A stretch of 55,632 bases of DNA from an uncultured Gammaproteobacteria bacterium (GCA_964404275.1 CAYOJH010000003.1:16879-72510), one strand, 5' to 3'; shown: positions 7,075 to 50,511, numbered from the stretch's first letter. Numbers and translations: made by a program. Notes: generated by a model not told the origin, from the sequence alone.

Positions 7075-7136
7075 GGCGGGTCCTTTCTGTGAGGGAACTT
7101 GGCCAAGTGAAGCATGCCGCGCCCGCTTCGTCAAGG

Positions 7137-7145
7137 TGGTATACT
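7137..7145 (+). promoter_or_regulatory. Extended -10 promoter (TGG-TATACT) 6 nt before GTG 7152; leaderless-type
   Basis: Read directly from the sequence. Confidence 0.6.
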
Positions 7146-7151
7146 GGCCTC

Positions 7152-9143
7152 GTGGAACCGCACGCGCATAATCTTTTAGGGGAGCATACGCCTCCGCGCA
7201 AAAAGAACGGGAAGCATGTCCTCTACGGCCTGCTCGGATTTTTGGGCGTCGTGATCATGATCGCCGCGGCGATCGCCGTGCCGGCCTTGGCGGCGGCGCG
7301 CGAAGTCTACGCGCAGGCGCTGGCCGGGCGCGACGCGATGTTCAGCGCCAAGACGGCGGCCGAACAGCTCGACTTCGCGACCGCCTCTGCGCGCCTCGAC
7401 GAAGCCGCGCAGCGTTTTCAGGCCGCCGAGAACGCAGATGCGAAACTGAAGACCGTCGAAGCACTGCCGTTTTTCCGGAAAGATCTCCAAGGCGTCTCGG
7501 ATCTTCTTGAAGGCGGACGCGAAGCCTCGCTGGCGCTCAAGCAGGCGATCGACGTCGGCGCCGATCTGGTCGGCGTCTTGAAGAGCGGAAACGCCGCGGT
7601 CGGAAGCGTGCCGGATCTTTCGACCGACGCGCGATCGGTCTCGTCGCTTTCGCGCGAAGAGAAGCGCGTGCTCCTCCAGAATCTTTCGGAAGCGCCGGAT
7701 CGGCTGGCCATCGCGCGCACCTCGCTTGAAAAAGCGATCGCGGCTTGGGATCGCGTGCCGAAAACGCCGCTGACCGAAGGCGTGCTGGCCTCGATCGCGC
7801 CGTACAAGGCGCAGCTCCAAACGCTGCACGATCTGATGAACAAGGATCTGTCGCCGCTCGCGATGCTGCCGTCGATCCTCGGCTACCCGGCGCCGAAGAC
7901 GTATCTCTTTTTGATGCTCAACAACACGGAGCTCAGGCCCGGCGGCGGCTTCATCGGCACCTACGGCATTTTGAAAATCCAGGACGGCGAGATCGCCTCG
8001 TTCTTCACGGATGATATTTACGCGATCGACGGCCCGTCCGAGTCGTACATGCACGAAACGCCGCCCGCGCCGCTCGCGAAATATCTGCGCGTGCCGAGTT
8101 GGTACATGCGCGACGCGAACTGGTCGCCGGATTTCGCCGTCTCCGCGCTGAACGTCGAGAAGTTCTATCACCTTGAAGGCGGCAAGGAGCAGATCGACGG
8201 CGTGATCGGCATGACGCCGACCGTCATCTCGAAGCTCTTGGCCATGACGGGACCGATCACGATCGACGGCTCGACCTTCACGGCGGACAATGTGGTCGAC
8301 GAGCTTGAGTATCGCGTTGAAGTCGCGTTCTGGAACAACGGCACGCCGGAAGCGCAGCGCAAGGACGTGGTCGGCAAGCTTGGACAGGAGCTGATCGGGC
8401 GGATGTTCAGCACGAAGCTCTCGAATCTTTCGCAGCTGGCCGACATCGCGCAGCAGTCGCTCGCCGAGAAGCAACTCATGGCCTCCTTTCATGACTCTTC
8501 GCTGGAAGCCTTCGCCGACGGCAGCGGCTGGTCCGGACGTTTCCGCACCGGGCCGGACGATCAGCTGGCCGTCATCGACGCGAACCTGGCCTCGCTCAAG
8601 ACCGACGCGGTCATGGACAAGAAAATTTCCTATACGCTGAAACCGGATGGCGATTCTTGGATCGCGCACGCCGCGATCACCTACAAGAACAACGGCCACT
8701 TCAATTGGAAGACGACGCGCTATCGCACCTACACGCGTTTTTACGTGCCGCTCGGCTCGACCTTCATCAAGGGCGACGGGATGATGGTCGATGATAAGCT
8801 CAACGATCCGAAGCGGCGGCCGGGCACGATCGACGTGGATACGGATCTCGGACACGCCGTTTTCGGCGGCTTCATTTCCGTCGAACCGGGGGAGACGCGC
8901 ACGCTTTCGGTCGAGTATCGCGTCTCGGACGCGGTCGCGCGGCTCATCCGAAGCAACGCCTACCAGCTTGACGTCCAGAAGCAGCTCGGCACCCTTGCCA
9001 ACGGTTTGACGCTCGATCTCGATTTTGGTAAGAACGTAGCGCGCGCGACGCCCTCGGAACCGCAAAGCCAATGGGGCGATTCGCACTACCGCTTGTCCAC
9101 GGATCTCCGCACCGATCGCCAGTTCTCGGTCGGCCTCCAGTAA
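7152..9143 (+). CDS. DUF4012-domain membrane-anchored protein
   Basis: N-terminal TM, helical region, then YLFLMLNNTELRPGGGFIGTYG, RDANWSPDF and IDGVIGMTP. GTG start inferred from the promoter position. Confidence 0.85.
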   Translation: MEPHAHNLLGEHTPPRKKNGKHVLYGLLGFLGVVIMIAAAIAVPALAAAREVYAQALAGRDAMFSAKTAAEQLDFATASARLDEAAQRFQAAENADAKLKTVEALPFFRKDLQGVSDLLEGGREASLALKQAIDVGADLVGVLKSGNAAVGSVPDLSTDARSVSSLSREEKRVLLQNLSEAPDRLAIARTSLEKAIAAWDRVPKTPLTEGVLASIAPYKAQLQTLHDLMNKDLSPLAMLPSILGYPAPKTYLFLMLNNTELRPGGGFIGTYGILKIQDGEIASFFTDDIYAIDGPSESYMHETPPAPLAKYLRVPSWYMRDANWSPDFAVSALNVEKFYHLEGGKEQIDGVIGMTPTVISKLLAMTGPITIDGSTFTADNVVDELEYRVEVAFWNNGTPEAQRKDVVGKLGQELIGRMFSTKLSNLSQLADIAQQSLAEKQLMASFHDSSLEAFADGSGWSGRFRTGPDDQLAVIDANLASLKTDAVMDKKISYTLKPDGDSWIAHAAITYKNNGHFNWKTTRYRTYTRFYVPLGSTFIKGDGMMVDDKLNDPKRRPGTIDVDTDLGHAVFGGFISVEPGETRTLSVEYRVSDAVARLIRSNAYQLDVQKQLGTLANGLTLDLDFGKNVARATPSEPQSQWGDSHYRLSTDLRTDRQFSVGLQ

Positions 9144-41006: not shown

Positions 41007-42113
41007 ATGTCCCAGGAACAGGAACGCACGCCCGTCACGCCGTATCTTCTCGCCATCGTGGGGATCTGCGTCTACGCTTTCCACTACCTCGGAAAGGAAG
41101 AATCGATCGTGCGCGCCGCGCCGGTCGACGACGTGGCCGTTTCCGAACGCGCCGCGCCCGTCGCGACGCCTCCGCTTTCGACGCCCCTGGCCGGCCCGCG
41201 ACGCGTGGTGCTGGTCAGCGTCGACGGCATGTCCTCGGCGCTGGTCGATCGCATGCCGCATCTCAAGCAGATGTTCGTCGATGGCGCCGGCACGCTGAAG
41301 ACCGAGGTGCCGCGCGGGCACACGACCGCGATCTCGCACGCCGTGCTCTTCACGGGCGCAGATCCGTCGGTGAACGGCGTCACGTGCGAACCCGACGAAC
41401 GTCCTTGCAACGGTTTCACGATGCGGAAAGGCCGAGGCTATCACTCCCCGGACTTCCGCTGGACGCCGCTCAAGGTCACGGATACGCTCTTCACCGCCGT
41501 CGAAGCGTCGGGCCACAAAGCCGTCGCCGCCGTGCAGAAGGGCAAACTCGTCGGCTTCTTCCGTCCGAACGGCGATGAGACCGGCATCATCAGCACGAAC
41601 AACACCGCCAGAGTGGTCGAAACCGGCTGCGAGGCGGTCAAGGATGATGACGTGCGCTTGGTCGTCTTGCACTTCAAGATGATCGACGATGCCGGGCACC
41701 ATGCGGGCTGGCTCTCCGATCGGCAGTACCGCGAAGCGGATACGATCGACGGACAGCTCCAGCAAGTGCGCGATTGCGTCGACCGAGCCAATGCCGCGAG
41801 CGGCAAAGTCTCGACGGTCTTGATCGTCACCTCCGACCACGGCGGCACGCCCGGCGGCGAACATTGCGGACGCAAGTTCGACAATGACGACACTGAACTG
41901 GTGCCCTGGGTCGCTCTCGGCCCCGGCCTCAAGCGAGGCTACGAGATCACGGCGCGTTCCGACGCGCCGACGACCTCGCAAGGCACGCATCCGACGATGC
42001 TGCTCGTCGACACGGTTCCCACGATCCTTGCCCTGCTCGGCCTGCCCGAAACGTCGATTCCGACGCTCTCGAAACAGGCCAAACCCGTCGAAGGGATTTA
42101 CGCGTCGCAATGA
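41007..42113 (+). CDS. Membrane-anchored alkaline-phosphatase-superfamily (NPP/phosphodiesterase-like) enzyme
   Basis: TM, VVLVSVDG, Thr nucleophile region HTTAISH...TG, DDAGH, TSDHGG and GEH motifs. GGAGG SD. Confidence 0.85.
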   Translation: MSQEQERTPVTPYLLAIVGICVYAFHYLGKEESIVRAAPVDDVAVSERAAPVATPPLSTPLAGPRRVVLVSVDGMSSALVDRMPHLKQMFVDGAGTLKTEVPRGHTTAISHAVLFTGADPSVNGVTCEPDERPCNGFTMRKGRGYHSPDFRWTPLKVTDTLFTAVEASGHKAVAAVQKGKLVGFFRPNGDETGIISTNNTARVVETGCEAVKDDDVRLVVLHFKMIDDAGHHAGWLSDRQYREADTIDGQLQQVRDCVDRANAASGKVSTVLIVTSDHGGTPGGEHCGRKFDNDDTELVPWVALGPGLKRGYEITARSDAPTTSQGTHPTMLLVDTVPTILALLGLPETSIPTLSKQAKPVEGIYASQ

Positions 42114-42134
42114 CGCGTCACCCCGTTCCGGGCC

Positions 42135-42172
42135 GCGCCGCACTCACCCTGCGGCGCGTTTTTTGTTATACT
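42135..42172 (+). promoter_or_regulatory. Terminator fused to an extended -10 (TGT-TATACT) 6 nt before ATG 42179
   Basis: GCGCCGCA-CTCACCC-TGCGGCGC-GTTTTTTG-TTATACT. Confidence 0.75.
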
Positions 42173-42178
42173 GGAAGC

Positions 42179-43516
42179 ATGTCTGAACAACATCGCAAAG
42201 CTTGGGTCGTGACCGTCGACATGGGCTACGGCCATGAACGCGCCTCGCACGCGATCAAGGATTTGGCGTACGGCGACGTGATCGTCGCCAACAACTACCA
42301 CGGCATTCCGGAGCGCGATAAAAAGCTATGGCTCGGCACCCGCACGATCTACGAAGCCTTCTCGCGTTTCAAGCGCGTGCCGTTCATCGGCGAATTGGCC
42401 TGGCACGCCTTCGACACGCTCCAGGAAATCAAGCCGTTCTATCCGCGCCGCGACTTGTCGGCGCCGAGCCTGCAGATCCTCGAGATTTATCATTTGATCG
42501 AAAAGAAGGGCCTGGGCCGCCACCTGATCGAGCTCATGCGGAACAAGCGGCGCATTCCGCTGATCTGCACCTTTCCGTTGCCGGCCTTCGCCGCCGACGT
42601 CTTCGAATATCCGGAAGACATTTATCTCGTCACGACCGACTCGGACGTCAGCCGCGCCTGGGTCGCCAAGGATCCGAAGCGCAGCCGCATCAAGTACTTC
42701 GCCTCGAACGGCCGCGTCGTCGAGCGTCTCAAGCTCTACGGCGTGCCGCCGGAAAATATTTTCCTGACCGGCTTTCCGCTCTCGAAGGAACTGGTCGGCG
42801 GCCCGCATGTCGACACGATCCGCAAGGACCTGGGAGAACGCATCTGCCATCTCGATCCGCAGGGCATTTTCTATTCGCGGTACGAGGAAATCCTGAAGTC
42901 GGCGCTCGGAGTGGCGAACTGCACCCGGGTCCCGACGCATCCGCTCACGCTGACCTTCAGCGTCGGCGGCGCGGGCGCGCAAGGCGAGCTCGGCATCACG
43001 ATCGCCAAGAGCCTGCGCGAGAAAATCCGCAGCGGCAAGATCTTGCTCAACCTGGTGGCCGGCACCAAGAAAGACGTCGCGCATTCTTTCAAGAAAGAAC
43101 TGCTGGCGCTCGGCATGGGTAGCGATCTCGGTCACGGCGTGCGCGTCCTCTGGTACCACGACCGCCCCACCTATTTCAGCCGCTTCGATCAAGTCCTTCG
43201 CCACACCGACGTCCTCTGGACCAAGCCGAGCGAGCTCTCCTTCTATACCGGCGTGGGAATGCCGATCATCATCTCGCCGCCGATCGGCTCCCAGGAAATC
43301 TTCAACGAACTCTGGCTGCGCACCGTCGGCGGCGGCACCCCGCAGGCGGACCCGCGCTACGTGAACGAATGGCTGTTCGACTGGGTCGAATCCGGCGGTC
43401 TGGCCCGCATGGCCTGGAACGGTTTCATCGAAGCGCCCACGCACGGTACCTATCGCATCGAGGAGATTCTGACCGGCGCCCAAGTCGAGCTCGCCAAATT
43501 GCCGCTCATCGTCTGA
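42179..43516 (+). CDS. GT-B fold glycosyltransferase-like protein (UgtP/MGDG-synthase-like motifs)
   Basis: VDMGYGHERA (compare GxGH), YLVTTDSD, IFLTGFP, SVGGAG and LWTKPSE (compare TKPGG) motifs. Confidence 0.65.
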   Translation: MSEQHRKAWVVTVDMGYGHERASHAIKDLAYGDVIVANNYHGIPERDKKLWLGTRTIYEAFSRFKRVPFIGELAWHAFDTLQEIKPFYPRRDLSAPSLQILEIYHLIEKKGLGRHLIELMRNKRRIPLICTFPLPAFAADVFEYPEDIYLVTTDSDVSRAWVAKDPKRSRIKYFASNGRVVERLKLYGVPPENIFLTGFPLSKELVGGPHVDTIRKDLGERICHLDPQGIFYSRYEEILKSALGVANCTRVPTHPLTLTFSVGGAGAQGELGITIAKSLREKIRSGKILLNLVAGTKKDVAHSFKKELLALGMGSDLGHGVRVLWYHDRPTYFSRFDQVLRHTDVLWTKPSELSFYTGVGMPIIISPPIGSQEIFNELWLRTVGGGTPQADPRYVNEWLFDWVESGGLARMAWNGFIEAPTHGTYRIEEILTGAQVELAKLPLIV

Positions 43517-43517
43517 C

Positions 43518-44498
43518 ATGCGCCCGCGCACGCGCCTTTTCCTGATGGGCTTGATCGGCCTCGCGGCCAGCGCGGGGCTATTCTTCTGGTACAAGGCCTC
43601 GTTGCCGCGCGTGATGCCGAAGTACGGCGTGACGTTCTCGACGCAGTACGCGAAAGAGCTCGGGCTCGATTGGAAGAAGGCCTTCACGACGACGCTCGAC
43701 GACCTCAAGGTTCGGAAGTTCCGGATTCCCGTGTACTGGGACGAAGTCGAAACGAAAAAAGGCGTCTACGACTGGTCCGATGTCGACTGGATGCTTTCCC
43801 AGGCGCAAGCGGCGCGCGCCGACGTGATCTTGGCGATCGGGCGCAAGACCCCGCGCTGGCCCGAATGCCATGTGCCCGCTTGGGCCGCGAAGCTCGGCGC
43901 CCCGGCGCAGGATCAGCAGGTGCTGCGCTTCCTGGCCGAAGAGGTCAAGCATTTCAAGAACGCGCCGGCCGTAAAGATCTGGCAGGTTGAAAACGAGCCG
44001 CTCTTCCAATTCGGCAAATGCCCGCCGCCTGACCGCGAATTTTTGAAGCAGGAAATCAGCCTCGTGCGCGAGGCCGATCCGCGTCCGATCATGGTGACCG
44101 ACAGCGGAGAATTGTCGACCTGGATCCGGACCGGCACTTTGGCCGACGTGCTCGGCATCAGCATGTACCGCCTGGTTTGGAATCAGGACGTCGGCGCGCT
44201 CTACTGGCCCGTCTCGCCGCTGTACTACACGGACCGCATGCGGCTGCTCAGTCCCATCGTCAAAAACGTGATCGTCAGCGAGCTCCAAGCCGAGCCGTGG
44301 TTCCGCTCGCCGGTCGAGGACACGCCGATCGACGAGCAGCTCGATCAGATGAACGCCGCGCGCCTCCGCGAAAACGCCCGGTTCGCCGCTTCGACCGGCG
44401 CTTCCGAAATCGATTTCTGGGGCGTCGAATGGTGGTACTGGATGACGCTGCACGGCCATCCCGAACTTTGGGAAGCGGCCAAACCCTTCTTCCGCTGA
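43518..44498 (+). CDS. Membrane-anchored clan GH-A glycoside hydrolase (GH42/GH5-like TIM barrel)
   Basis: N-terminal TM. RIPVYWDEVE...YDWSDVDW, WQVENEP (acid/base) and VSELQAEPW (nucleophile) motifs. Confidence 0.8.
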   Translation: MRPRTRLFLMGLIGLAASAGLFFWYKASLPRVMPKYGVTFSTQYAKELGLDWKKAFTTTLDDLKVRKFRIPVYWDEVETKKGVYDWSDVDWMLSQAQAARADVILAIGRKTPRWPECHVPAWAAKLGAPAQDQQVLRFLAEEVKHFKNAPAVKIWQVENEPLFQFGKCPPPDREFLKQEISLVREADPRPIMVTDSGELSTWIRTGTLADVLGISMYRLVWNQDVGALYWPVSPLYYTDRMRLLSPIVKNVIVSELQAEPWFRSPVEDTPIDEQLDQMNAARLRENARFAASTGASEIDFWGVEWWYWMTLHGHPELWEAAKPFFR

Positions 44499-44499
44499 T

Positions 44500-45639
44500 A
44501 TGGCATCCCAAGCCCCCGTTTCACAACTGCGCTGCGATCCGTCCATCCTGGCGGCGATTTGGGATGCGGCGCCCAACGCCTGGCTGTTCGTGGCGGCGGA
44601 CGGCCGCATCTGCCTCGTCAACCGCGCGTTCCAGGATTTTTTCGGCCTGTTCCCGTCCGAGATCGCCGGCAAAATGCTGCCGGACATCGAGAAGGCCATG
44701 ACCGTCACCTTCGCGGAACCGCTCTCGTATCATGAGACGATCGCGCATCCGTTCGAAGACCGCGAGGCTCATTTTTTCCGCGACGTCGAGGTGACGACGC
44801 CGCAGCACCGCTACCTGGAGATCGTCAGCGAACCCGTGCGTCAGCAAGACCACTACCTTGGGCGCTTGTGGATCATCCGCGACGTGACGAGCGAGCGCGA
44901 AATCACGGAGCTCAAAATCCAGTACGGCGGCCTGCGCAACGCCGACGAGATCAAATCGAAATTCCTGACGGTCGCCTCGCACCAGATGCGCACGCCGATG
45001 AACGCGATGCGCTGGAACCTCGACTTGCTGCTCTCGGGCGACGCCGGCGCGATCCCGAAGGAGGCGATGGAACTGCTGCGCGACGTCTACAAGAGCCTGA
45101 TGACCAGCCTCTCGATCATCGACGACATGCTGCTCGCGGTCGATATCGAGCAGCGCGCGCTGCGCCTCGAAAAGACGTCGGTCGACCTGGCCGAAGTCGT
45201 CGGCAAGGTCGTCCACGATTTCGCCCGCAGCGCCATCGTGCGCAAGCAGACGATCGCCTTCGCGCCGCCCAAGAACCTGCCGCGCATGTTCATCGACTCC
45301 GCGCGGATGGAAAAAGTCTTCAATCGCCTGATCGACAACGCCATCCGATACACGCCGGACGGAGGACGCATCGACGTGGAGATCCGTCCGGACAAGGACG
45401 TGATCGCGGTCATCGTGCGCGACAGCGGCGTCGGCGTGCCGGTCCCGGATCGGGCGCGCCTGTTCGAACGCTTCTACCGCTCGAAACAGGCCATCGATCT
45501 CAACCCGAACGCCTCGGGCCTCGGCCTCTATATCGCCAAGTTCATCGTGGCGGCGCACGACGGCTGGATCGCCTACGAGCAGGCGCCGGGCGGCGGCTCC
45601 GTTTTCACCGTCAACTTGCCCCGGCGCGCCGCGATGTAA
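44500..45639 (+). CDS. Soluble PAS-domain sensor histidine kinase
   Basis: PAS (DGRICLVNRAF), H-box SHQMRTP, N-box LIDNAIRY, G1 DSGVG, G2 GLGLYI. No TM. Confidence 0.93.
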   Translation: MASQAPVSQLRCDPSILAAIWDAAPNAWLFVAADGRICLVNRAFQDFFGLFPSEIAGKMLPDIEKAMTVTFAEPLSYHETIAHPFEDREAHFFRDVEVTTPQHRYLEIVSEPVRQQDHYLGRLWIIRDVTSEREITELKIQYGGLRNADEIKSKFLTVASHQMRTPMNAMRWNLDLLLSGDAGAIPKEAMELLRDVYKSLMTSLSIIDDMLLAVDIEQRALRLEKTSVDLAEVVGKVVHDFARSAIVRKQTIAFAPPKNLPRMFIDSARMEKVFNRLIDNAIRYTPDGGRIDVEIRPDKDVIAVIVRDSGVGVPVPDRARLFERFYRSKQAIDLNPNASGLGLYIAKFIVAAHDGWIAYEQAPGGGSVFTVNLPRRAAM

Positions 45640-45669
45640 TACACTCCTCCTATAAGCCTTCGTTTTTCT

Positions 45670-46044
45670 ATGGCCAAAACCGTACTGATCGTCGAGGATG
45701 AACAGAGCATGCAGCGGGCTTTGAAGAGCAAGCTGGAACACGCAGGCTACACCGTCCAGGCCGCTTCCGACGGCGAAGAGGCCATGAAGTTTCTCAAAGT
45801 CGGCGAGCCCGCGCTCGTGCTGCTCGACTTGATCATGCCCAAGATCGACGGCATCTCCGTGCTGCGTCAGATGAAAGGCGACGACCGCCTCCGGCCGATC
45901 CCGGTCATCATTCTCACGAACTTGAGTTCCGGCGACAAGGTCGCCGAAGCCATGCAACTCGGCACCTTCGACTTCCTCGTCAAGGCGAACTACTCGCTCG
46001 ACGACGTCTTGAAAAAAGTCTCCGACAGGATCGGAAGCCCGTAA
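45670..46044 (+). CDS. Single-domain response regulator (CheY-like)
   Basis: LIVEDE, LLDLIMPKIDG, ILTN and FLVKA motifs. Confidence 0.92.
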   Translation: MAKTVLIVEDEQSMQRALKSKLEHAGYTVQAASDGEEAMKFLKVGEPALVLLDLIMPKIDGISVLRQMKGDDRLRPIPVIILTNLSSGDKVAEAMQLGTFDFLVKANYSLDDVLKKVSDRIGSP

Positions 46045-46048
46045 GACC

Positions 46049-46438
46049 ATGCCCGCGCCGCGCGCCAGAATTTTGGTGGTGGAGGACGAGACCTTTCTCG
46101 TCAAGATTTACGACGTCAAACTGAAAAAAGAAGGTTTCGACGTCGGCATAGCGACCGATGGCGAAGCGGCGCTCGCGATGGCCGTGTCGTTCCGTCCGGA
46201 TCTGATCCTGCTGGACCTGCTCTTGCCGAAGCTCGACGGATTCGAGGTGCTGAGGCGCCTGCGCGCCGAGCCGAAAACCAAACACATCCAAGTCATCGTG
46301 CTTTCCAATCTCGGACAAGAAGAAGACATGAAGCGCGCCCGGGCGCTCGGCGCCGAGGACTATCTCATCAAGGCGGATCACACGCTGCAGGAGATCATCG
46401 CGAAAATCCGCCAGCAGCTTGAACGGCGTTCCGCCTGA
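46049..46438 (+). CDS. Single-domain response regulator (CheY-like)
   Basis: LVVEDE, LLDLLLPKLDG, VLSN and YLIKA motifs. Confidence 0.92.
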   Translation: MPAPRARILVVEDETFLVKIYDVKLKKEGFDVGIATDGEAALAMAVSFRPDLILLDLLLPKLDGFEVLRRLRAEPKTKHIQVIVLSNLGQEEDMKRARALGAEDYLIKADHTLQEIIAKIRQQLERRSA

Positions 46439-46439
46439 T

Positions 46440-47564
46440 GTGACCATTCCACGCCACATTTTACGGGAATCTTCGGCGGAGCGCGCCGTCGATTTGCTGT
46501 TGTCCGAAGCCGTTCGCGCTTCGGCCACCGACCTGGTTCTCGAGCCTCAGGCAGGATTCGCGACCGTGCGGATGCGGATCGGAGGTCTCGCGCACGAGAT
46601 GTTCCGGCAGCCGAAGGACACGCACGCGAAATTCGTCGCGCGCCTCAAAGCGCTGGCGCGCCTTCGGGACGTCGCGCCGCTTGCCGCGCAGGAGGGCGAG
46701 GTGCGCCGCATCGTCGGCGGCCGATCTGTCGAAGCGCGGGCCAGGATCGTGCCGGTCATGGAGGGGGAAAAAGCCGTCGTGCATTTTCGCGCGCCGAGGC
46801 CCGCCCTCGACGCGCTCGGCTTGTCCGAAACGCAAATGGAGCGGCTGCGCGCGGCTTTGAAGAAAAAATCCGGCTTGATCGCGGTCGTCGGTCCGCGCGC
46901 GTCCGGCCTCACGACCACGCTTTTGGCTTGCGTGAAAGAGGCGCGTGCCGCCGGCCAGGCCGCCGTCACGATCGAAGATCCGATCGAAGAAGATCTTCCG
47001 GGCGTCGCGCAGGCGGAAGTCGACGCCGCTTCCGGCCGTACCTTTGCCGCACTTGCGCGCGCCGCGGCGGTCGAAGGCTCCGGCTTGCTTATGATCGGCG
47101 ACCTGCGCGATGAAGCGACGGCCGCGATCGCCGTCGCCGCCGCCAAGCGCCGGCCGGTGCTGATCGGTCTCCGCGGCTCCGGCGCGTTGGATGCGATCCC
47201 GCGGCTTTCCGAACTCGGCATCGACCCCACCATCGCGCGCGCCACCCTCGCGCTTTCCGTCGGCCAGCGTCTCGCGCGGATCATCTGCCCGCGCTGCCGC
47301 CGCGCCGAAAAAACCACGAAAGCGCAGGCGCTTTCTTCCGGCTGGCCGCGCCCGCTCGTCGCGCGCCTCTTCGCCGCCAAGGAGGCGATCGCGCTCGCTC
47401 GCGGCGCCAAATGCGAAGCTTGCCGATACACCGGCTTCCGGGGCGCGATCGGGATCTTCGAGCTGTTCGATCCGAAAGATCCCGGCAGCCTGACCCCGTT
47501 CTTCGAAGACGGCCTTCGCAAAGCCTTGACGGGCCTCACGACGATCGAAGAGCTGCTCCGCTGA
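46440..47564 (+). CDS. PilB/GspE-family ATPase homolog with degenerate Walker A/B and His boxes
   Basis: ATDLVLEP, GPRASGLTTT, TIEDPIE, IGDLRD, QRLARIICPRC...CEAC and GLTTIEE motifs. In-frame GTG start 1 nt after the upstream stop. Confidence 0.8.
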   Translation: MTIPRHILRESSAERAVDLLLSEAVRASATDLVLEPQAGFATVRMRIGGLAHEMFRQPKDTHAKFVARLKALARLRDVAPLAAQEGEVRRIVGGRSVEARARIVPVMEGEKAVVHFRAPRPALDALGLSETQMERLRAALKKKSGLIAVVGPRASGLTTTLLACVKEARAAGQAAVTIEDPIEEDLPGVAQAEVDAASGRTFAALARAAAVEGSGLLMIGDLRDEATAAIAVAAAKRRPVLIGLRGSGALDAIPRLSELGIDPTIARATLALSVGQRLARIICPRCRRAEKTTKAQALSSGWPRPLVARLFAAKEAIALARGAKCEACRYTGFRGAIGIFELFDPKDPGSLTPFFEDGLRKALTGLTTIEELLR

Positions 47565-47567
47565 TTT

Positions 47568-47601
47568 TGCTATACTGTCGGCACCTTTCGATTTATCCAC
47601 A
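47568..47601 (+). promoter_or_regulatory. Extended -10 (TGC-TATACT) followed by a consensus DnaA box TTATCCACA (47593-47601)
   Basis: Read directly from the sequence. Confidence 0.55.
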
Positions 47602-47618: not shown

Positions 47619-48185
47619 ATGTCCAAGGAAGTCGTGCTCGACATCGAGACGGATGGCTTGATCGGCCCCAACAATGCCATGCCGAAGATCACGCTCGTCG
47701 GCGTCTACTATTACGAGACGGACGAGTACGTCAGCTACCTTGAACACGAGTTGCCGAACCTCTGGCCGCGCTTGGAGCGCGCCGACCGCATCATCGGCTA
47801 CAACACCAAGGGCTTCGATCTTCCGGTCATGAACAGCTATTACGCAGGCGACTTGCTGACGTTCCAGAATCTTGACCTGCTGGAAGTCATTGCCGCCAGC
47901 CTCGGCTTCCGCCTGAAACTCGACTCGGTCGCGCAGGCCACGCTCGGGATCGGCAAGACGGGGCACGGCCTCCAGGCCCTCGAGTATTTCAAGAAAGGGG
48001 AGCTCGACAAGCTTCGCGATTACTGCCTGATGGACGTGAAGATCACCAAAGAAGTCTACGAATACGGGCGCGAGCGCGGCGAGGTCCTCTTTGAGGATCG
48101 GACCGGCGCGAAGAAGGCCGTCAAAGTCAACTTCAAGATGCCGAACGCCAAAGCGAATCCGATCAACCTGACGATGCCGTTTTAG
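47619..48185 (+). CDS. DEDD 3-prime-5-prime exonuclease / RNase H-like (YprB/RNase_H_2-like)
   Basis: VVLDIET (ExoI), IGYNTKGFD (ExoII), LKLDSVA and YCLMDV (ExoIII) motifs. Confidence 0.85.
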   Translation: MSKEVVLDIETDGLIGPNNAMPKITLVGVYYYETDEYVSYLEHELPNLWPRLERADRIIGYNTKGFDLPVMNSYYAGDLLTFQNLDLLEVIAASLGFRLKLDSVAQATLGIGKTGHGLQALEYFKKGELDKLRDYCLMDVKITKEVYEYGRERGEVLFEDRTGAKKAVKVNFKMPNAKANPINLTMPF

Positions 48186-48213
48186 AAAAAAGCCCTCCGT
48201 TGGAGGGTCTTTG
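48186..48213. terminator. Terminator between convergent genes
   Basis: AAAAAAG-CCCTCC-GTT-GGAGGG-TCTTTG. Confidence 0.7.
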
Positions 48214-49245: not shown

Positions 49246-50511
49246 ATGAACCTCTTTGACCTCAAAGATCAAAAAGAAAAGGAGAAGCAAGCGCCGCTGG
49301 CGGAACTGATGCGTCCGCGCGCGCTCGAGGATTTCGTGGGCCAGGATGAGCTGGTCGGCGAAGGTTCGGCGCTCAGGACACTTTTGGAATTGGACGCGAT
49401 CCCGTCCATGATTTTCTGGGGACCGCCCGGCGTCGGCAAAACGACGCTCGCGCGCATCATCGCGGGCCGCACCAAATCGCGCTTCGTCGCGCTGTCGGCC
49501 ACGACCTCCGGCATCGCCGATCTCAAGCGCGCGGTTGAGGAAGCGCGCGAGCGGCGCGCCTTGCACGGCGAGCGCACGATCGTCTTCATCGACGAAATCC
49601 ACCGTTGGAACAAAGCGCAGCAGGACGCGTTTTTGCCGCACGTCGAGGACGGCACGGTCACGCTGATCGGCGCGACCACGGAAAACCCTTCCTTCGAAGT
49701 GAACAGCGCGCTCTTGTCGCGTTCGCGCGTCTTCGTGCTCAAGGCGCTGTCCGTCGAGGCGATTGAAGCGATGCTGAAGCGCGCGCTCGCGCTGGTCAAA
49801 GAACGCGGCGTGTATCCGCACAAGATCAAGGTCGACAAGGAAGCGCTGAAATACCTGGCGACGATCGCGAACGGCGACGGACGCTCGGCCTTGAACGGCC
49901 TGGAACTCGGGCTGCGCAGCGTCCGGCCGGACGCGAAAGGCGTGGTATACTTGAAGAAGGAAGCGCTGGCCAAAACGCTTCAAAAAAACCATCTTTTGTA
50001 CGACCGGCAGGGCGAGGAGCACTACAACATCATCTCCGCCTTGCACAAGTCGATGCGCGGTTCGGACACCGACGCGGCGCTCTACTGGCTCGGGCGCATG
50101 CTTGAGGCGGGGGAGGATCCGCTCTACGTCGCGCGGCGCATCGTGCGCTTCGCTTCGGAAGATGTCGGCTTGGCGGATCCGAACGCGCTCGTCCAAGCAG
50201 TCGCCGCCTATCAAGCCTGTCATCAGATCGGCATGCCGGAATGCAACGTCATCCTGGCGCAAGCCGTGGCGTATCTCGCCCGCGCGCCGAAATCGAACGC
50301 GCTCTACGTCGCCTACGGCCGCGTCCAGCGCGACATCGCGGAGCATCCGAACGAAGGCGTTCCGCTGCATCTTCGCAACGCGCCGACCAAGCTCATGAAG
50401 AACCTCGGCTACGGCCAGGATTACAAGTACAACCCCGTCTTCAAGGAACCGGTCGATCAGGACTATCTCCCCGAATCCCTCAAGGGACGCCATTACCTCG
50501 ATGATGTCTAA
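49246..50511 (+). CDS. rarA: Replication-associated recombination protein A (MgsA/RarA AAA+ ATPase)
   Basis: PLAELMRP, WGPPGVGKTT, FIDEIHRWNKAQQD, GATTENPSF, SALHKSMRGSD and FASEDVG motifs. Confidence 0.97.
   Translation: MNLFDLKDQKEKEKQAPLAELMRPRALEDFVGQDELVGEGSALRTLLELDAIPSMIFWGPPGVGKTTLARIIAGRTKSRFVALSATTSGIADLKRAVEEARERRALHGERTIVFIDEIHRWNKAQQDAFLPHVEDGTVTLIGATTENPSFEVNSALLSRSRVFVLKALSVEAIEAMLKRALALVKERGVYPHKIKVDKEALKYLATIANGDGRSALNGLELGLRSVRPDAKGVVYLKKEALAKTLQKNHLLYDRQGEEHYNIISALHKSMRGSDTDAALYWLGRMLEAGEDPLYVARRIVRFASEDVGLADPNALVQAVAAYQACHQIGMPECNVILAQAVAYLARAPKSNALYVAYGRVQRDIAEHPNEGVPLHLRNAPTKLMKNLGYGQDYKYNPVFKEPVDQDYLPESLKGRHYLDDV

Follow-up and report, generated by a model that had tools for sequence, protein, structure and literature searches.

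Why would an ultra-small groundwater bacterium of the Patescibacteria keep the gene of a type IV pilus ATPase whose catalytic motifs have been lost, and keep it beside a histidine kinase, two receivers and two glycan enzymes? The question is raised by a six-gene string on the plus strand of a 55,632-nucleotide stretch of DNA (the window, analysed as a whole), in which a DUF6938 GT-B transferase is followed, 5' to 3', by a membrane-anchored clan GH-A hydrolase, a soluble PAS kinase, two bare receivers and a PilB/GspE homologue (Table 1). A preliminary description had read the string as a circuit in which phosphorylated receivers act through a non-catalytic PilB paralogue to gate a pilus motor, in step with the making and breaking of a surface glycoconjugate. 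The six ORFs lie where that description placed them, and its intergenic gaps of 1, 1, 30, 4 and 1 nt agree with the coordinates and the sequence. The unit's sequence is identical among contigs assembled from four groundwater runs. The DNA is 64% G+C, a composition in which a long ORF survives by chance more easily.

Table 1. Features of the six-gene string and its borders (window coordinates).
Feature	Position	Strand	Basis or remark
Intrinsic terminator, hairpin (9-bp stem, 8 G-C pairs) and T-run	42134..42158	+	strong
Extended -10 element TGTTATACT	42164..42172	+	ATG 6 nt downstream
GT-B glycosyltransferase (GT), DUF6938, GT28-like	42179..43516	+	PF22053 (DUF6938) 1.4e-13
Clan GH-A (beta/alpha)8 glycoside hydrolase (GH), N-terminal membrane anchor	43518..44498	+	weak GH42/GH5/GH2 TIM-barrel matches
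Soluble PAS-HisKA-HATPase_c histidine kinase (HK1)	44500..45639	+	Pfam PAS, HisKA and HATPase_c
Candidate weak internal promoter, TTGCCC-18 nt-TACACT, or TATAAG at 45651-45656	45616..45656	+	ahead of RR1, read from sequence
Stand-alone receiver RR1	45670..46044	+	Response_reg only
Stand-alone receiver RR2, SNLGQ type	46049..46438	+	Response_reg only
PilB-derived pseudo-ATPase, 374 aa, GTG start	46440..47564	+	T2SSE 2.6e-50
Next extended -10 element TGCTATACT, a further TGNTATACT copy	47568..47576	+	directly past pseudo-ATPase stop codon

The six genes form one co-directional string, for which the leaderless promoter at 42164-42172 is the probable start of transcription; only DNA runs contain the region, and co-transcription is read from consensus motifs. 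Because the ATG stands 6 nt past the extended -10 element, a leaderless mRNA is implied for the GT gene. The relatives support the promoter proposed there, since the layout of terminator, -10 element, 6 nt and ATG is kept among them, where it drives a 96-aa Smr gene. The same -10/ATG geometry is also found at 7137-7152 of the window, and the motif TGNTATACT has four copies in the window against 0.04 expected. Throughout the family one TGTTATACT element lies before the Smr or GT gene and the next only past the last pilus-related gene; as had been supposed, the promoter is common to GT-GH and the signalling and pilus genes.

The upstream terminator ends a phosphodiesterase gene and forms the 5' border of the unit; in four loci from relatives (L001, L003, L004, L006) this promoter likewise stands behind a comparable hairpin. 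In these four loci the element TGCTATACT is likewise conserved; it is the promoter of an RNase H-fold/DEDDy exonuclease gene (47619-48185), and the first real terminator on the 3' side is at 48192-48208. The claim that no terminator separates the genes stands to the extent that the unit holds only two weak terminator-like sites, both inside coding sequence; the total of 12 such sites is not above shuffles (7.9 +/- 2.5). An internal promoter near 45640 is possible by eye, but a consensus scan did not call one. Elsewhere in the window plainly unrelated genes are also joined by gaps of 14 nt or less, so the tight spacing is not above the background for this genome.

The signalling genes have the sequence features of a two-component system, namely a HisKA/HATPase_c kinase and receivers with putative acidic pocket, Asp, T/S and K residues. 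HK1 has no room for a transmembrane segment, and its H-box reads SHQMRTP in translation. Its orthologues are found at the same position in relatives (57-78% identity), with kinase dN/dS values of 0.10-0.27. In RR1 the ED pair, the phospho-acceptor Asp in LLD, the T and the K are all there, with a TNLSS segment and K-A in place of K-P, and the protein is 79-86% identical in all relatives (dN/dS 0.03-0.15). The RR2 translation has ED, LLD, S and K. In sister genomes, orthologues of the two receivers (80-84% and 65-84% identity) immediately precede a canonical PilB-PilC pair, which places them, as the preliminary description had it, in a pilus-linked signalling module; the receivers adjoining PilB in three distant Patescibacteria (L015, L062, L068) best match RR2. 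Of the six pseudo-ATPase clade members seen as loci, five have lost RR2, which indicates that the module is still shrinking, a pattern that also fits slow decay.

Judged by its sequence, the last protein of the string is a pseudo-enzyme and not a working T2SSE member. It resembles PilB/GspE (T2SSE, PF00437) in its N2 and C-terminal domain homology (171.6 bits against PF00437, residues 18-352), in a tetracysteine zinc motif (CxxC...CxxC) that is kept throughout the pseudo-ATPase clade, and in its pilB position behind pilus-linked receivers. It matches TIGR02533 at 6e-63, far under the equivalog cut-off, and TIGR02538 also matches. The earlier label of a dead ATPase is justified by the loss of the Walker A Lys, the catalytic Glu, the His box and the N1 domain. 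Walker A (GxxGxGK[ST]) has become GPRASGLTT at 46890-46916 with the Lys gone, and clade members carry L, V, R or C at this position. The Walker B/catalytic Glu motif VGEIRD reads IGDLRD (GE to GD), and the His box TGHLVLSTLHTN reads KRRPVLIGLRGS. An Asp box (TIEDPIE) is present as TIEDPIEE, within the clade in the window copy only. The pseudo-ATPase gave no PF05157 match for an N1/GSPII/MshEN domain and begins at the N2 domain; it is also short of about 20 C-terminal residues. A new N-terminal motif, V-P-I-P-H-H-I-L-K-E (PxPHHIL), is conserved in the clade and supports the GTG start.

The origin of this protein can be followed through its relatives. The full sister operon runs Smr, DUF6938 GT, GH-A, HK1 (PAS), a GAF protein, a polytopic kinase (HK2), RR1, RR2, PilB and PilC, and continues with four minor pilin/tip genes, PilM and then pilin genes, so that the receivers and the canonical PilB-PilC-minor pilins-PilM-pilin cluster stand behind the same GT-GH pair and leaderless promoter. 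The full cluster is found in L009/L082 and, with HK1, in L005 and L007. Other loci contain less of it: in L086 PilM remains but PilC and the minor pilins are gone, in L087 PilB is truncated and PilM a fragment, L084 reads HK1-RR1-RR2-eroded PilB-PilM-RNH, and L085 reads RR1-RR2-eroded PilB-pilin. Past the GT-GH-HK1-RR1-pseudoATPase series, L004/L081 and L040 carry a giant prepilin cassette, and L001, L003 and L006 an RNH gene. Canonical Walker A, Walker B and His box motifs are found in all eight PilC-bearing loci and are eroded in all five PilC-less locus types. A tblastn search of the whole window with the PilC, PilM, pilins and minor pilins of L082 gave no match, and the PilC, PilM and prepilin genes that stand beside the ATPase in L009/L082 do not do so in the 55.6-kb window.

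The tree agrees with the synteny. The pseudo-ATPase clade (SH-aLRT 100) is sister to the L084 intermediate (97) and nested in the family's PilB clade (100), on a stem branch of 1.36, with the window copy the longest terminal branch (1.01). From the canonical sister clusters, the stepwise loss and the motif erosion, it follows that the dead ATPase is the positional and phylogenetic descendant of the operon's own PilB. Tree and synteny do not support a separate gating PilB paralogue; the gene is what was left when PilC, PilM, the pilins and the minor pilins were lost from the locus. The circuit interpretation is therefore supported as to the pilus-linked receivers, the conserved dead ATPase and the common promoter, and not supported as to the separate paralogue and the motor to gate; the window encodes no such motor.

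As the preliminary description also held, the non-catalytic homologue is conserved under selection. Its 374-378-codon ORF is intact in six loci, with P0121 adding one more, and intact ORFs of equal length are found in at least eight genomes although the proteins are 39-61% identical to one another. The dN/dS values of 0.17-0.43 are about twice those of the neighbours and are rough because dS is saturated (dS > 1). A motor gene that persists in non-catalytic form, under selection, beside a kinase and receivers probably has a second, non-motor job.

The two glycan enzymes at the head of the string are most likely a housekeeping pair for an envelope glycolipid or glycan that shares the promoter with the pilus module and may not depend on it. 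Homology of the GT in 80 loci begins at residues 1-7, which supports its start at 42179. It is probably a lipid-acceptor glycosyltransferase resembling MGDG synthase, UgtP and MurG. Its predicted model (pLDDT 90.2) has the GT-B two-Rossmann fold closest to GT28 members, with Arabidopsis MGD1 as top Foldseek match (4wyi, E 8e-8; also 4x1t) and MurG (3s2u) tenth. At the sequence level it shares patches with the UgtP model (a partial match, 28.5 bits against a cut-off of 500), its best PDB match (9wde, 1.4e-5) spans 48 residues, and it lies above no curated family threshold besides DUF6938. The GH can be assigned to clan GH-A but to no CAZy family. Its predicted model (pLDDT 93.3) has a helix at residues 3-28 and fold matches to GH10, PslG, GH42 and GH35, several GH-A families scoring equally by fold. 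In the (beta/alpha)8 barrel the NEP acid/base Glu follows strand 4 and the nucleophile Glu (SELQ) strand 7, and both are conserved: E158-N159-E160-P161 is invariant and E255 nearly so among 22 homologues (dN/dS of the GH 0.06-0.22). The GH is thus like the PslG-type anchored hydrolases of exopolysaccharide operons in its anchor, barrel and catalytic pair. The sequence identity of both enzymes to PslG and the GT28 enzymes, however, is 12-18%, and neither scores above a curated family cut-off other than that of DUF6938.

Linkage of the glycan genes to the signalling and ATPase genes had been named in advance as a check on the circuit. It is kept in the family and also in a few lineages further off: in nine of 57 more distant loci pilus genes are found within 10 kb of the GT, and in L032 receivers are. 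In the other 48, however, it has no pilus neighbour. The common promoter and the recurrence of the GT near pilus genes hint weakly at a coupling of GT-GH to the pilus module; close packing is the default of this genome.

Receiver-only regulators that bind PilB include the PATAN-CheY regulators of Synechocystis and PilG/PilH of Pseudomonas. In Xanthomonas oryzae (EmvR/ColS) the single-domain receiver EmvR binds and represses PilB, and its overexpression leads to more exopolysaccharide (PMC11973254), and DrdR of X. campestris binds both PilB and PilT (PMC13507683). The receivers of the window are like all of these in being output-less, histidine-kinase-fed and tied to the pilus ATPase. For receivers of the window type this tie is direct adjacency to PilB in many Patescibacteria, and physical binding is presumed. 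They differ from these regulators in that their presumed target is no longer catalytic and stands without the other parts of the machine, and in having K-A for K-P and, in RR2, SNLGQ.

We thus favor, at a probability of roughly 60%, the reading that a larger type IV pilus operon under signal control was reduced to the six-gene string, in which the pseudo-PilB was kept as the likely partner of the receivers. The descent of the pseudo-ATPase, the loss of its catalytic motifs and the selection on it are established parts of this account. The lineage no longer has Smr, GAF-HK2, PilC, PilM, the pilins or the minor pilins. PilB, once an assembly ATPase, has shed its N1 domain and all nucleotide-handling motifs and has since been retained, shorter, fast-evolving and under purifying selection, alongside HK1 and the receivers. 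By analogy with intact PilB and single-domain receivers in other bacteria, the pseudo-ATPase is most likely a non-catalytic partner of the phospho-receivers, their docking partner or output. Through protein contacts the signal may then reach either the envelope glycan enzymes of the same transcript or a second pilus machine encoded elsewhere.

The stepwise loss of neighbours in every related lineage could instead mean that a pilus operon is being dismantled and that the ATPase gene is a non-functional piece still undeleted, with the kinase and receivers kept for other reasons or also going. The absence of RR2 from five clade members, the accelerated rate on the stem branch, the raised dN/dS and the varied replacement of the Walker A Lys, which shows the site to be unconstrained, would all fit. 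We nevertheless consider such a relic quite improbable, as the ORFs have stayed intact and equal in length despite dS > 1, dN/dS is well under 1, and the four Cys are invariant and the new N-terminal motif conserved. Dead DNA is quickly deleted by patescibacterial genomes, and here the losses of PilC, PilM and the pilins were clean, whereas the pseudo-ATPase gene stayed. It is unlikely, too, that the phospho-receivers use the dead PilB to gate an active motor encoded elsewhere, by mixed-hexamer poisoning or competition for PilC/PilM, in an attach/detach switch coordinated with glycoconjugate synthesis and hydrolysis. The window holds no PilB, PilC, PilM or pilin, the protein descends by decay from the PilB of this very locus and is no added regulator, and with the N1 domain and C-terminal residues gone, hexamer contacts may not survive. 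The many distant GT-GH loci without pilus neighbours count against the glycan half of the switch, and since the operon of relatives begins with an unrelated Smr gene, a common transcript does not mean a common function. The gating idea draws on the pilus linkage of the receivers across the phylum class sampled, on the nine distant loci with a GT near pilus genes, on the pseudo-ATPase of L004 and L040, which is translationally coupled to a prepilin/tip cassette that needs some working machine, and on the precedent of Saccharibacteria, which use two distinct pili (PMC11623550).

Signalling by PilB to glycan production has a precedent in M. xanthus, where a PilB Walker A mutant signals exopolysaccharide production without pili and the nucleotide-free protein is the signalling form (PMC5544727, PMC11656802). 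A PilB locked nucleotide-free in the window could by analogy signal to a glycan or glycolipid output of the co-transcribed GT and GH, which would suit the EmvR effect on exopolysaccharide, the promoter common to GT-GH and the module in all family members, and the GH's best PDB sequence match, PslG, which belongs to an exopolysaccharide operon and is itself an anchored hydrolase. We regard this as very improbable: it is argued purely by analogy, GT and GH occur widely in the module's absence, nothing like a Dif pathway was seen, and the PslG match is weak (E 0.004), with several GH-A families equal by fold.

The comparison with M. xanthus PilB (PMC5544727) nevertheless bears on what the remnant operon may mean. 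There, a PilB unable to bind or hydrolyze ATP still has an output outside pilus assembly, one that concerns surface glycans. The window offers a natural PilB without Walker A, whose gene appears to share a transcript with those of a glycosyltransferase and a glycosidase. In M. xanthus the protein is a mutant engineered from a functioning motor and acts via the Dif chemosensory pathway, whereas nothing of that pathway was seen in the window and the link of the pseudo-PilB to GT and GH is positional only. We suggest only tentatively, as a doubtful prospect, that the kinase, receivers and nucleotide-free PilB shell were kept, once the pilus machine of the locus had gone, as a self-standing signalling module with output to GT/GH production of an envelope glycan or glycolipid or to a second pilus machine. 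If true, the pseudo-PilB would be the natural equivalent of the engineered Walker A mutant, and the 'moonlighting' signalling role of PilB could outlive its role as a motor.

The six plus-strand genes sit tightly together (see the feature table), and the spacing in the preliminary description of 1, 1, 30, 4, and 1 nt was confirmed from coordinates and sequence. GC3 is 0.76-0.88 across the six ORFs (42179-47564), as in coding DNA. A search of sequencing runs for the region found it in four DNA runs, all from a single groundwater study, and in no RNA run. Contigs from the four are identical in sequence here, so the unit is not an assembly accident; as the four runs carry an identical strain, they offered no strain polymorphism for a within-population test of selection. 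The kinase, HK1, lacks a membrane segment because its PAS, HisKA, and HATPase_c domains fill the protein, and the ATPase homologue matches the NCBIfam GspE and PilB models at one third of the equivalog cut-off scores. A longer ORF for the glycosyltransferase (GT), beginning at the ATGA overlap at 42110, was ruled out because it would cross the terminator hairpin; the homology in 80 loci, which sets in at residues 1-7 counted from 42179, also speaks against it. In the start region of the ATPase homologue (46419-46572), the public annotation (P0001, 330 aa) begins at Met52, which leaves the protein too short and without its conserved N-terminus. Because homologues share the N-terminus V-P-I-P-H-H-I-L-K-E, we placed the start at GTG 46440 and dropped both TTG 46419 and Met52.

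Features of the unit, its borders, and related loci (window positions unless a locus is named)
Feature	Position	Strand	Comment
Strong hairpin with T-run	42134-42158		Closes upstream phosphodiesterase (PDE) gene
TGTTATACT	42164-42172		After hairpin; GT ATG six bases further on
GT	42179-43516	+	DUF6938
GH	43518-44498	+	Weak matches, clan GH-A TIM-barrel
HK1	44500-45639	+	PAS-HisKA-HATPase_c
RR1	45670-46044	+	Response_reg only
RR2	46049-46438	+	Response_reg only
ATPase homologue	46440-47564	+	T2SSE, 2.6e-50
Next copy of promoter element	47568-47576		Right after ATPase homologue stop codon; serves RNase H-fold exonuclease gene
DnaA-box 9-mer TTATCCACA	47593-47601		Perfect match; 17 nt 3' of exonuclease-gene -10
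First convincing terminator 3' of unit	48192-48208
TGGTATACT	7137-7154		Followed by 6 nt and GTG 7152 in DUF4012 frame
Fourth TGNTATACT match	49943-49951		Inside mgsA coding sequence; same coding context at L087:14976
Smr gene of relatives (96 aa)	L001:565-896; L003/L004/L006:9692-10000		Between promoter and GT; compared with window 42114-42178
PilM of relatives	L082:18503-20578; L084:4025-6091; L086:11717-13774
Prepilin cassette of relatives	L081:11128-14955 (= L004:15067-18891); L040:4617-5390

The leaderless promoter proposed ahead of GT appears well supported by conservation, since four relatives (L001, L003, L004, L006) keep the hairpin, TGTTATACT, and an ATG in the +7 position. In these loci the promoter heads a 96-codon Smr gene directly 5' of GT; the Smr gene has been cleanly lost in the window, and the GT start codon now lies at +7 behind the -10. 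The window contains four copies of TGNTATACT, where 0.04 would be expected. At the 7137 copy, six bases again separate the element from a GTG in frame with the DUF4012 gene. That gene probably begins there (7152), on a leaderless mRNA, rather than at 7089, and this geometry of -10, 6 nt, and start codon seems to mark a regular class of leaderless promoters in the organism. The match inside mgsA is probably conserved as protein-coding sequence and not as a promoter. In line with the previous description of no terminator between the genes, we found just two weak terminator-like sites inside the unit, both in coding sequence, and the total count of such sites was not above that of shuffles. Because the first convincing terminator comes only at 48192-48208, transcription could possibly run on from the unit into the exonuclease gene. 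The DnaA box behind the exonuclease promoter is the single copy in the window (0.03 expected). At the matching site in L001, L003, L004, and L006 the sequence AATTATCCACA is kept, and it also lies behind the major pilin gene promoter in L082 (about 20610); it may be a shared operator.

The PilB/GspE homologue had been called dead, and alignment with canonical relatives bears that description out. Walker A reads GPRASGLTT in place of GPTGSGKTT, Walker B IGDLRD in place of VGEIRD, and the His box KRRPVLIGLRGS in place of TGHLVLSTLHTN. The N1/MshEN domain is absent and about 20 residues near the C-terminus are deleted, while the Asp box and the four zinc-site cysteines are kept.

With GT as the anchor, a scan of Patescibacteria MAGs (labelled Uhr-, Kerfeld-, Veblen-, Falkow-, Buchanan-, and Jacksonbacteria) yielded 80 loci, which we mapped by tblastn and supplemented with four further look-ups; the ten close-family loci that came from the scan, together with the looked-up ones, form a deletion series. 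The motif states track gene content along this series: Walker A, Walker B, and the His box are canonical in all eight loci that carry PilC (L005, L007, L009, L015, L018, L058, L060, L062) and eroded, by degrees, in all five PilC-less locus types. A 379-410-aa ORF after HK1 in L005, L007, and L009 was considered as a very diverged pseudo-ATPase and proved to be the GAF protein. At 685-691 aa, PilM in the family is about double its usual length and has a weakly Baseplate_J-like C-terminal part; L087 keeps just that part (330 aa).

Gene order and motif erosion in the close family
Locus	Gene order	Eroded
L009/L082	PDE, Smr, GT, GH, GAF, HK2 (831 aa), RR1, RR2, PilB (566 aa, with MshEN), PilC, four minor-pilin/tip genes, PilM (691 aa), pilins
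L005, L007	As L009/L082, but HK1 after GH
L086	GT-GH-HK1-GAF-HK2-RR1-RR2-PilB-PilM-exonuclease; PilC and minor pilins lost	His box only
L087	Like L086; PilB 431 aa without N1; PilM a fragment	His box and N1
L084	GH-HK1-RR1-RR2-PilB (437 aa)-PilM-exonuclease	K to R and His box
L085	RR1-RR2-PilB (503 aa)-pilin	K to T and E to D
Window	GT-GH-HK1-RR1-RR2-374-aa protein-exonuclease	Everything (window's clade)
L004/L081, L040	GT-GH-HK1-RR1-376-aa protein-giant prepilin (G/STLLE)-two pilin-like genes-exonuclease	As window
L001, L003, L006	GT-GH-HK1-RR1-376-378-aa protein-exonuclease	As window

The preliminary description took the ATPase homologue for a PilB paralog, a gene separate from the motor. 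Synteny and a maximum-likelihood tree of 56 sequences gave a different outcome. Eight pseudo-ATPases form one clade (SH-aLRT 100) on a long stem branch (1.36), sister to the L084 intermediate (97) and then to the L086 PilB, and all of these fall inside the family's receiver-linked PilB clade (100), a nesting that rules out an old regulatory paralogue. A word-index protein search returned no pseudo-ATPase relative above 36% identity, and only P0121, P0140, and the intermediate P0133 exceeded 40% in an exhaustive HMMER search covering 1.84 billion representatives. Given this nesting and the restricted set of matches, the dead ATPase is the positional and phylogenetic descendant of the operon's own PilB, found in a narrow lineage only. 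Other high-scoring records (P0122-P0136, about 1000 aa) each contain two T2SSE-type stretches, as tandem double secretion ATPases.

Whether such a descendant is a relic or still serves a function was judged from its pattern of change. The pseudo-ATPases may be in slow decay, and RR2 speaks for this: it is the receiver type that adjoins PilB in distant lineages (L015, L062, L068), and it is already gone in five members of the pseudo-ATPase clade. Among six loci, pairwise amino acid identity of the pseudo-ATPases is 42-61%, with dN of 0.31-0.61, dS of 1.2-3.2, and dN/dS of 0.17-0.43; these ratios, like those of the neighbours RR1 (0.03-0.15), GH (0.06-0.22), and HK1 (0.10-0.27), are rough because dS is saturated, and dN is far below dS despite that saturation. 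The ORFs are of near-equal length and free of frameshifts in at least eight genomes, with the four cysteines invariant and a new N-terminal motif kept. The Walker lysine is replaced variously by L, V, R, or C, which fits a site that no longer matters. We read these patterns as loss of catalysis with another function probably retained under relaxed constraint.

The glycan genes are less firmly tied to this module. The GT model (pLDDT 90) has a GT-B fold. Its closest match is MGD1, a galactolipid synthase, and MurG is also among the matches; in sequence, GT shares short patches with UgtP, the processive diacylglycerol glucosyltransferase. The hydrolase GH is modelled (pLDDT 93) as a (beta/alpha)8 barrel with an N-terminal anchor; the Glu of its NEP motif is invariant and a second Glu nearly invariant among homologues. 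Its fold matches GH10, PslG, GH42, and GH35 about equally, and PslG is the best sequence match (E 0.004). The linkage of GT and GH to the kinase, receiver, and ATPase genes stood up within the family, where a promoter motif stands ahead of Smr/GT and the next one comes only after the last pilus-related gene. Of the more distant loci, 57 have a flank of 6 kb or more around GT. Nine of these carry pilus genes in that flank (up to 10 kb), including L062, which repeats GT-GH-RR-PilB-PilC, and the linkage fails in the other 48, where GT has no pilus neighbour. In L032, GT is surrounded by receivers and a kinase. The relatives' operon opens with the unrelated Smr gene, and gaps of 14 nt or less in the window also join mreB, a GT4 gene, holB, a BNR protein, and frr, as well as a giant surface protein, a tRNA synthetase, an M16 peptidase, and tpiA. 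For these three reasons co-transcription in the window is weak evidence of shared function, and caution is needed before tight gene strings in genomes of this type are called functional units.

Patescibacteria depend on type IV pili for host attachment and DNA uptake, and receiver-only control of pilus motors is known in proteobacteria and cyanobacteria. In full-text searches we found no account of how Patescibacteria control their pili, nor any description of their kinase-receiver-PilB arrangement or of selection maintaining a naturally dead PilB. A tblastn search located no PilB, PilC, PilM, or pilin within the window, and the prepilin cassette of L004/L081 and L040 is absent from its pseudo-ATPase locus. 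In those two relatives, translational coupling joins the pseudo-ATPase to a 593-aa giant prepilin (MKARQG/STLLE; CarboxypepD_reg-like domain) and to two pilin-like genes. The persistence of this prepilin/tip cassette implies that the L004 and L040 genomes would contain a working pilus machine somewhere. There are precedents for binding of single-domain receivers to PilB: one is EmvR, which also represses the PilB ATPase (PMC11973254), and another, DrdR, has PilB and PilT as binding partners (PMC13507683). The simplest inference is that RR1 and RR2 would still dock on the PilB shell. Another kind of precedent comes from M. xanthus, where a Walker A mutant of PilB, thought to be nucleotide-free, switches on exopolysaccharide production without pili (PMC5544727; PMC11656802).

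The genome family thus offers a natural deletion series, from a complete kinase/two-receiver pilus operon to a stump of kinase, receivers, and dead motor, and this series singles out which proteins to examine. Because the motor gene appears to have been kept under selection after its machine was gone, the series argues that PilB may serve a second function, one apart from the motor and linked to the receivers.
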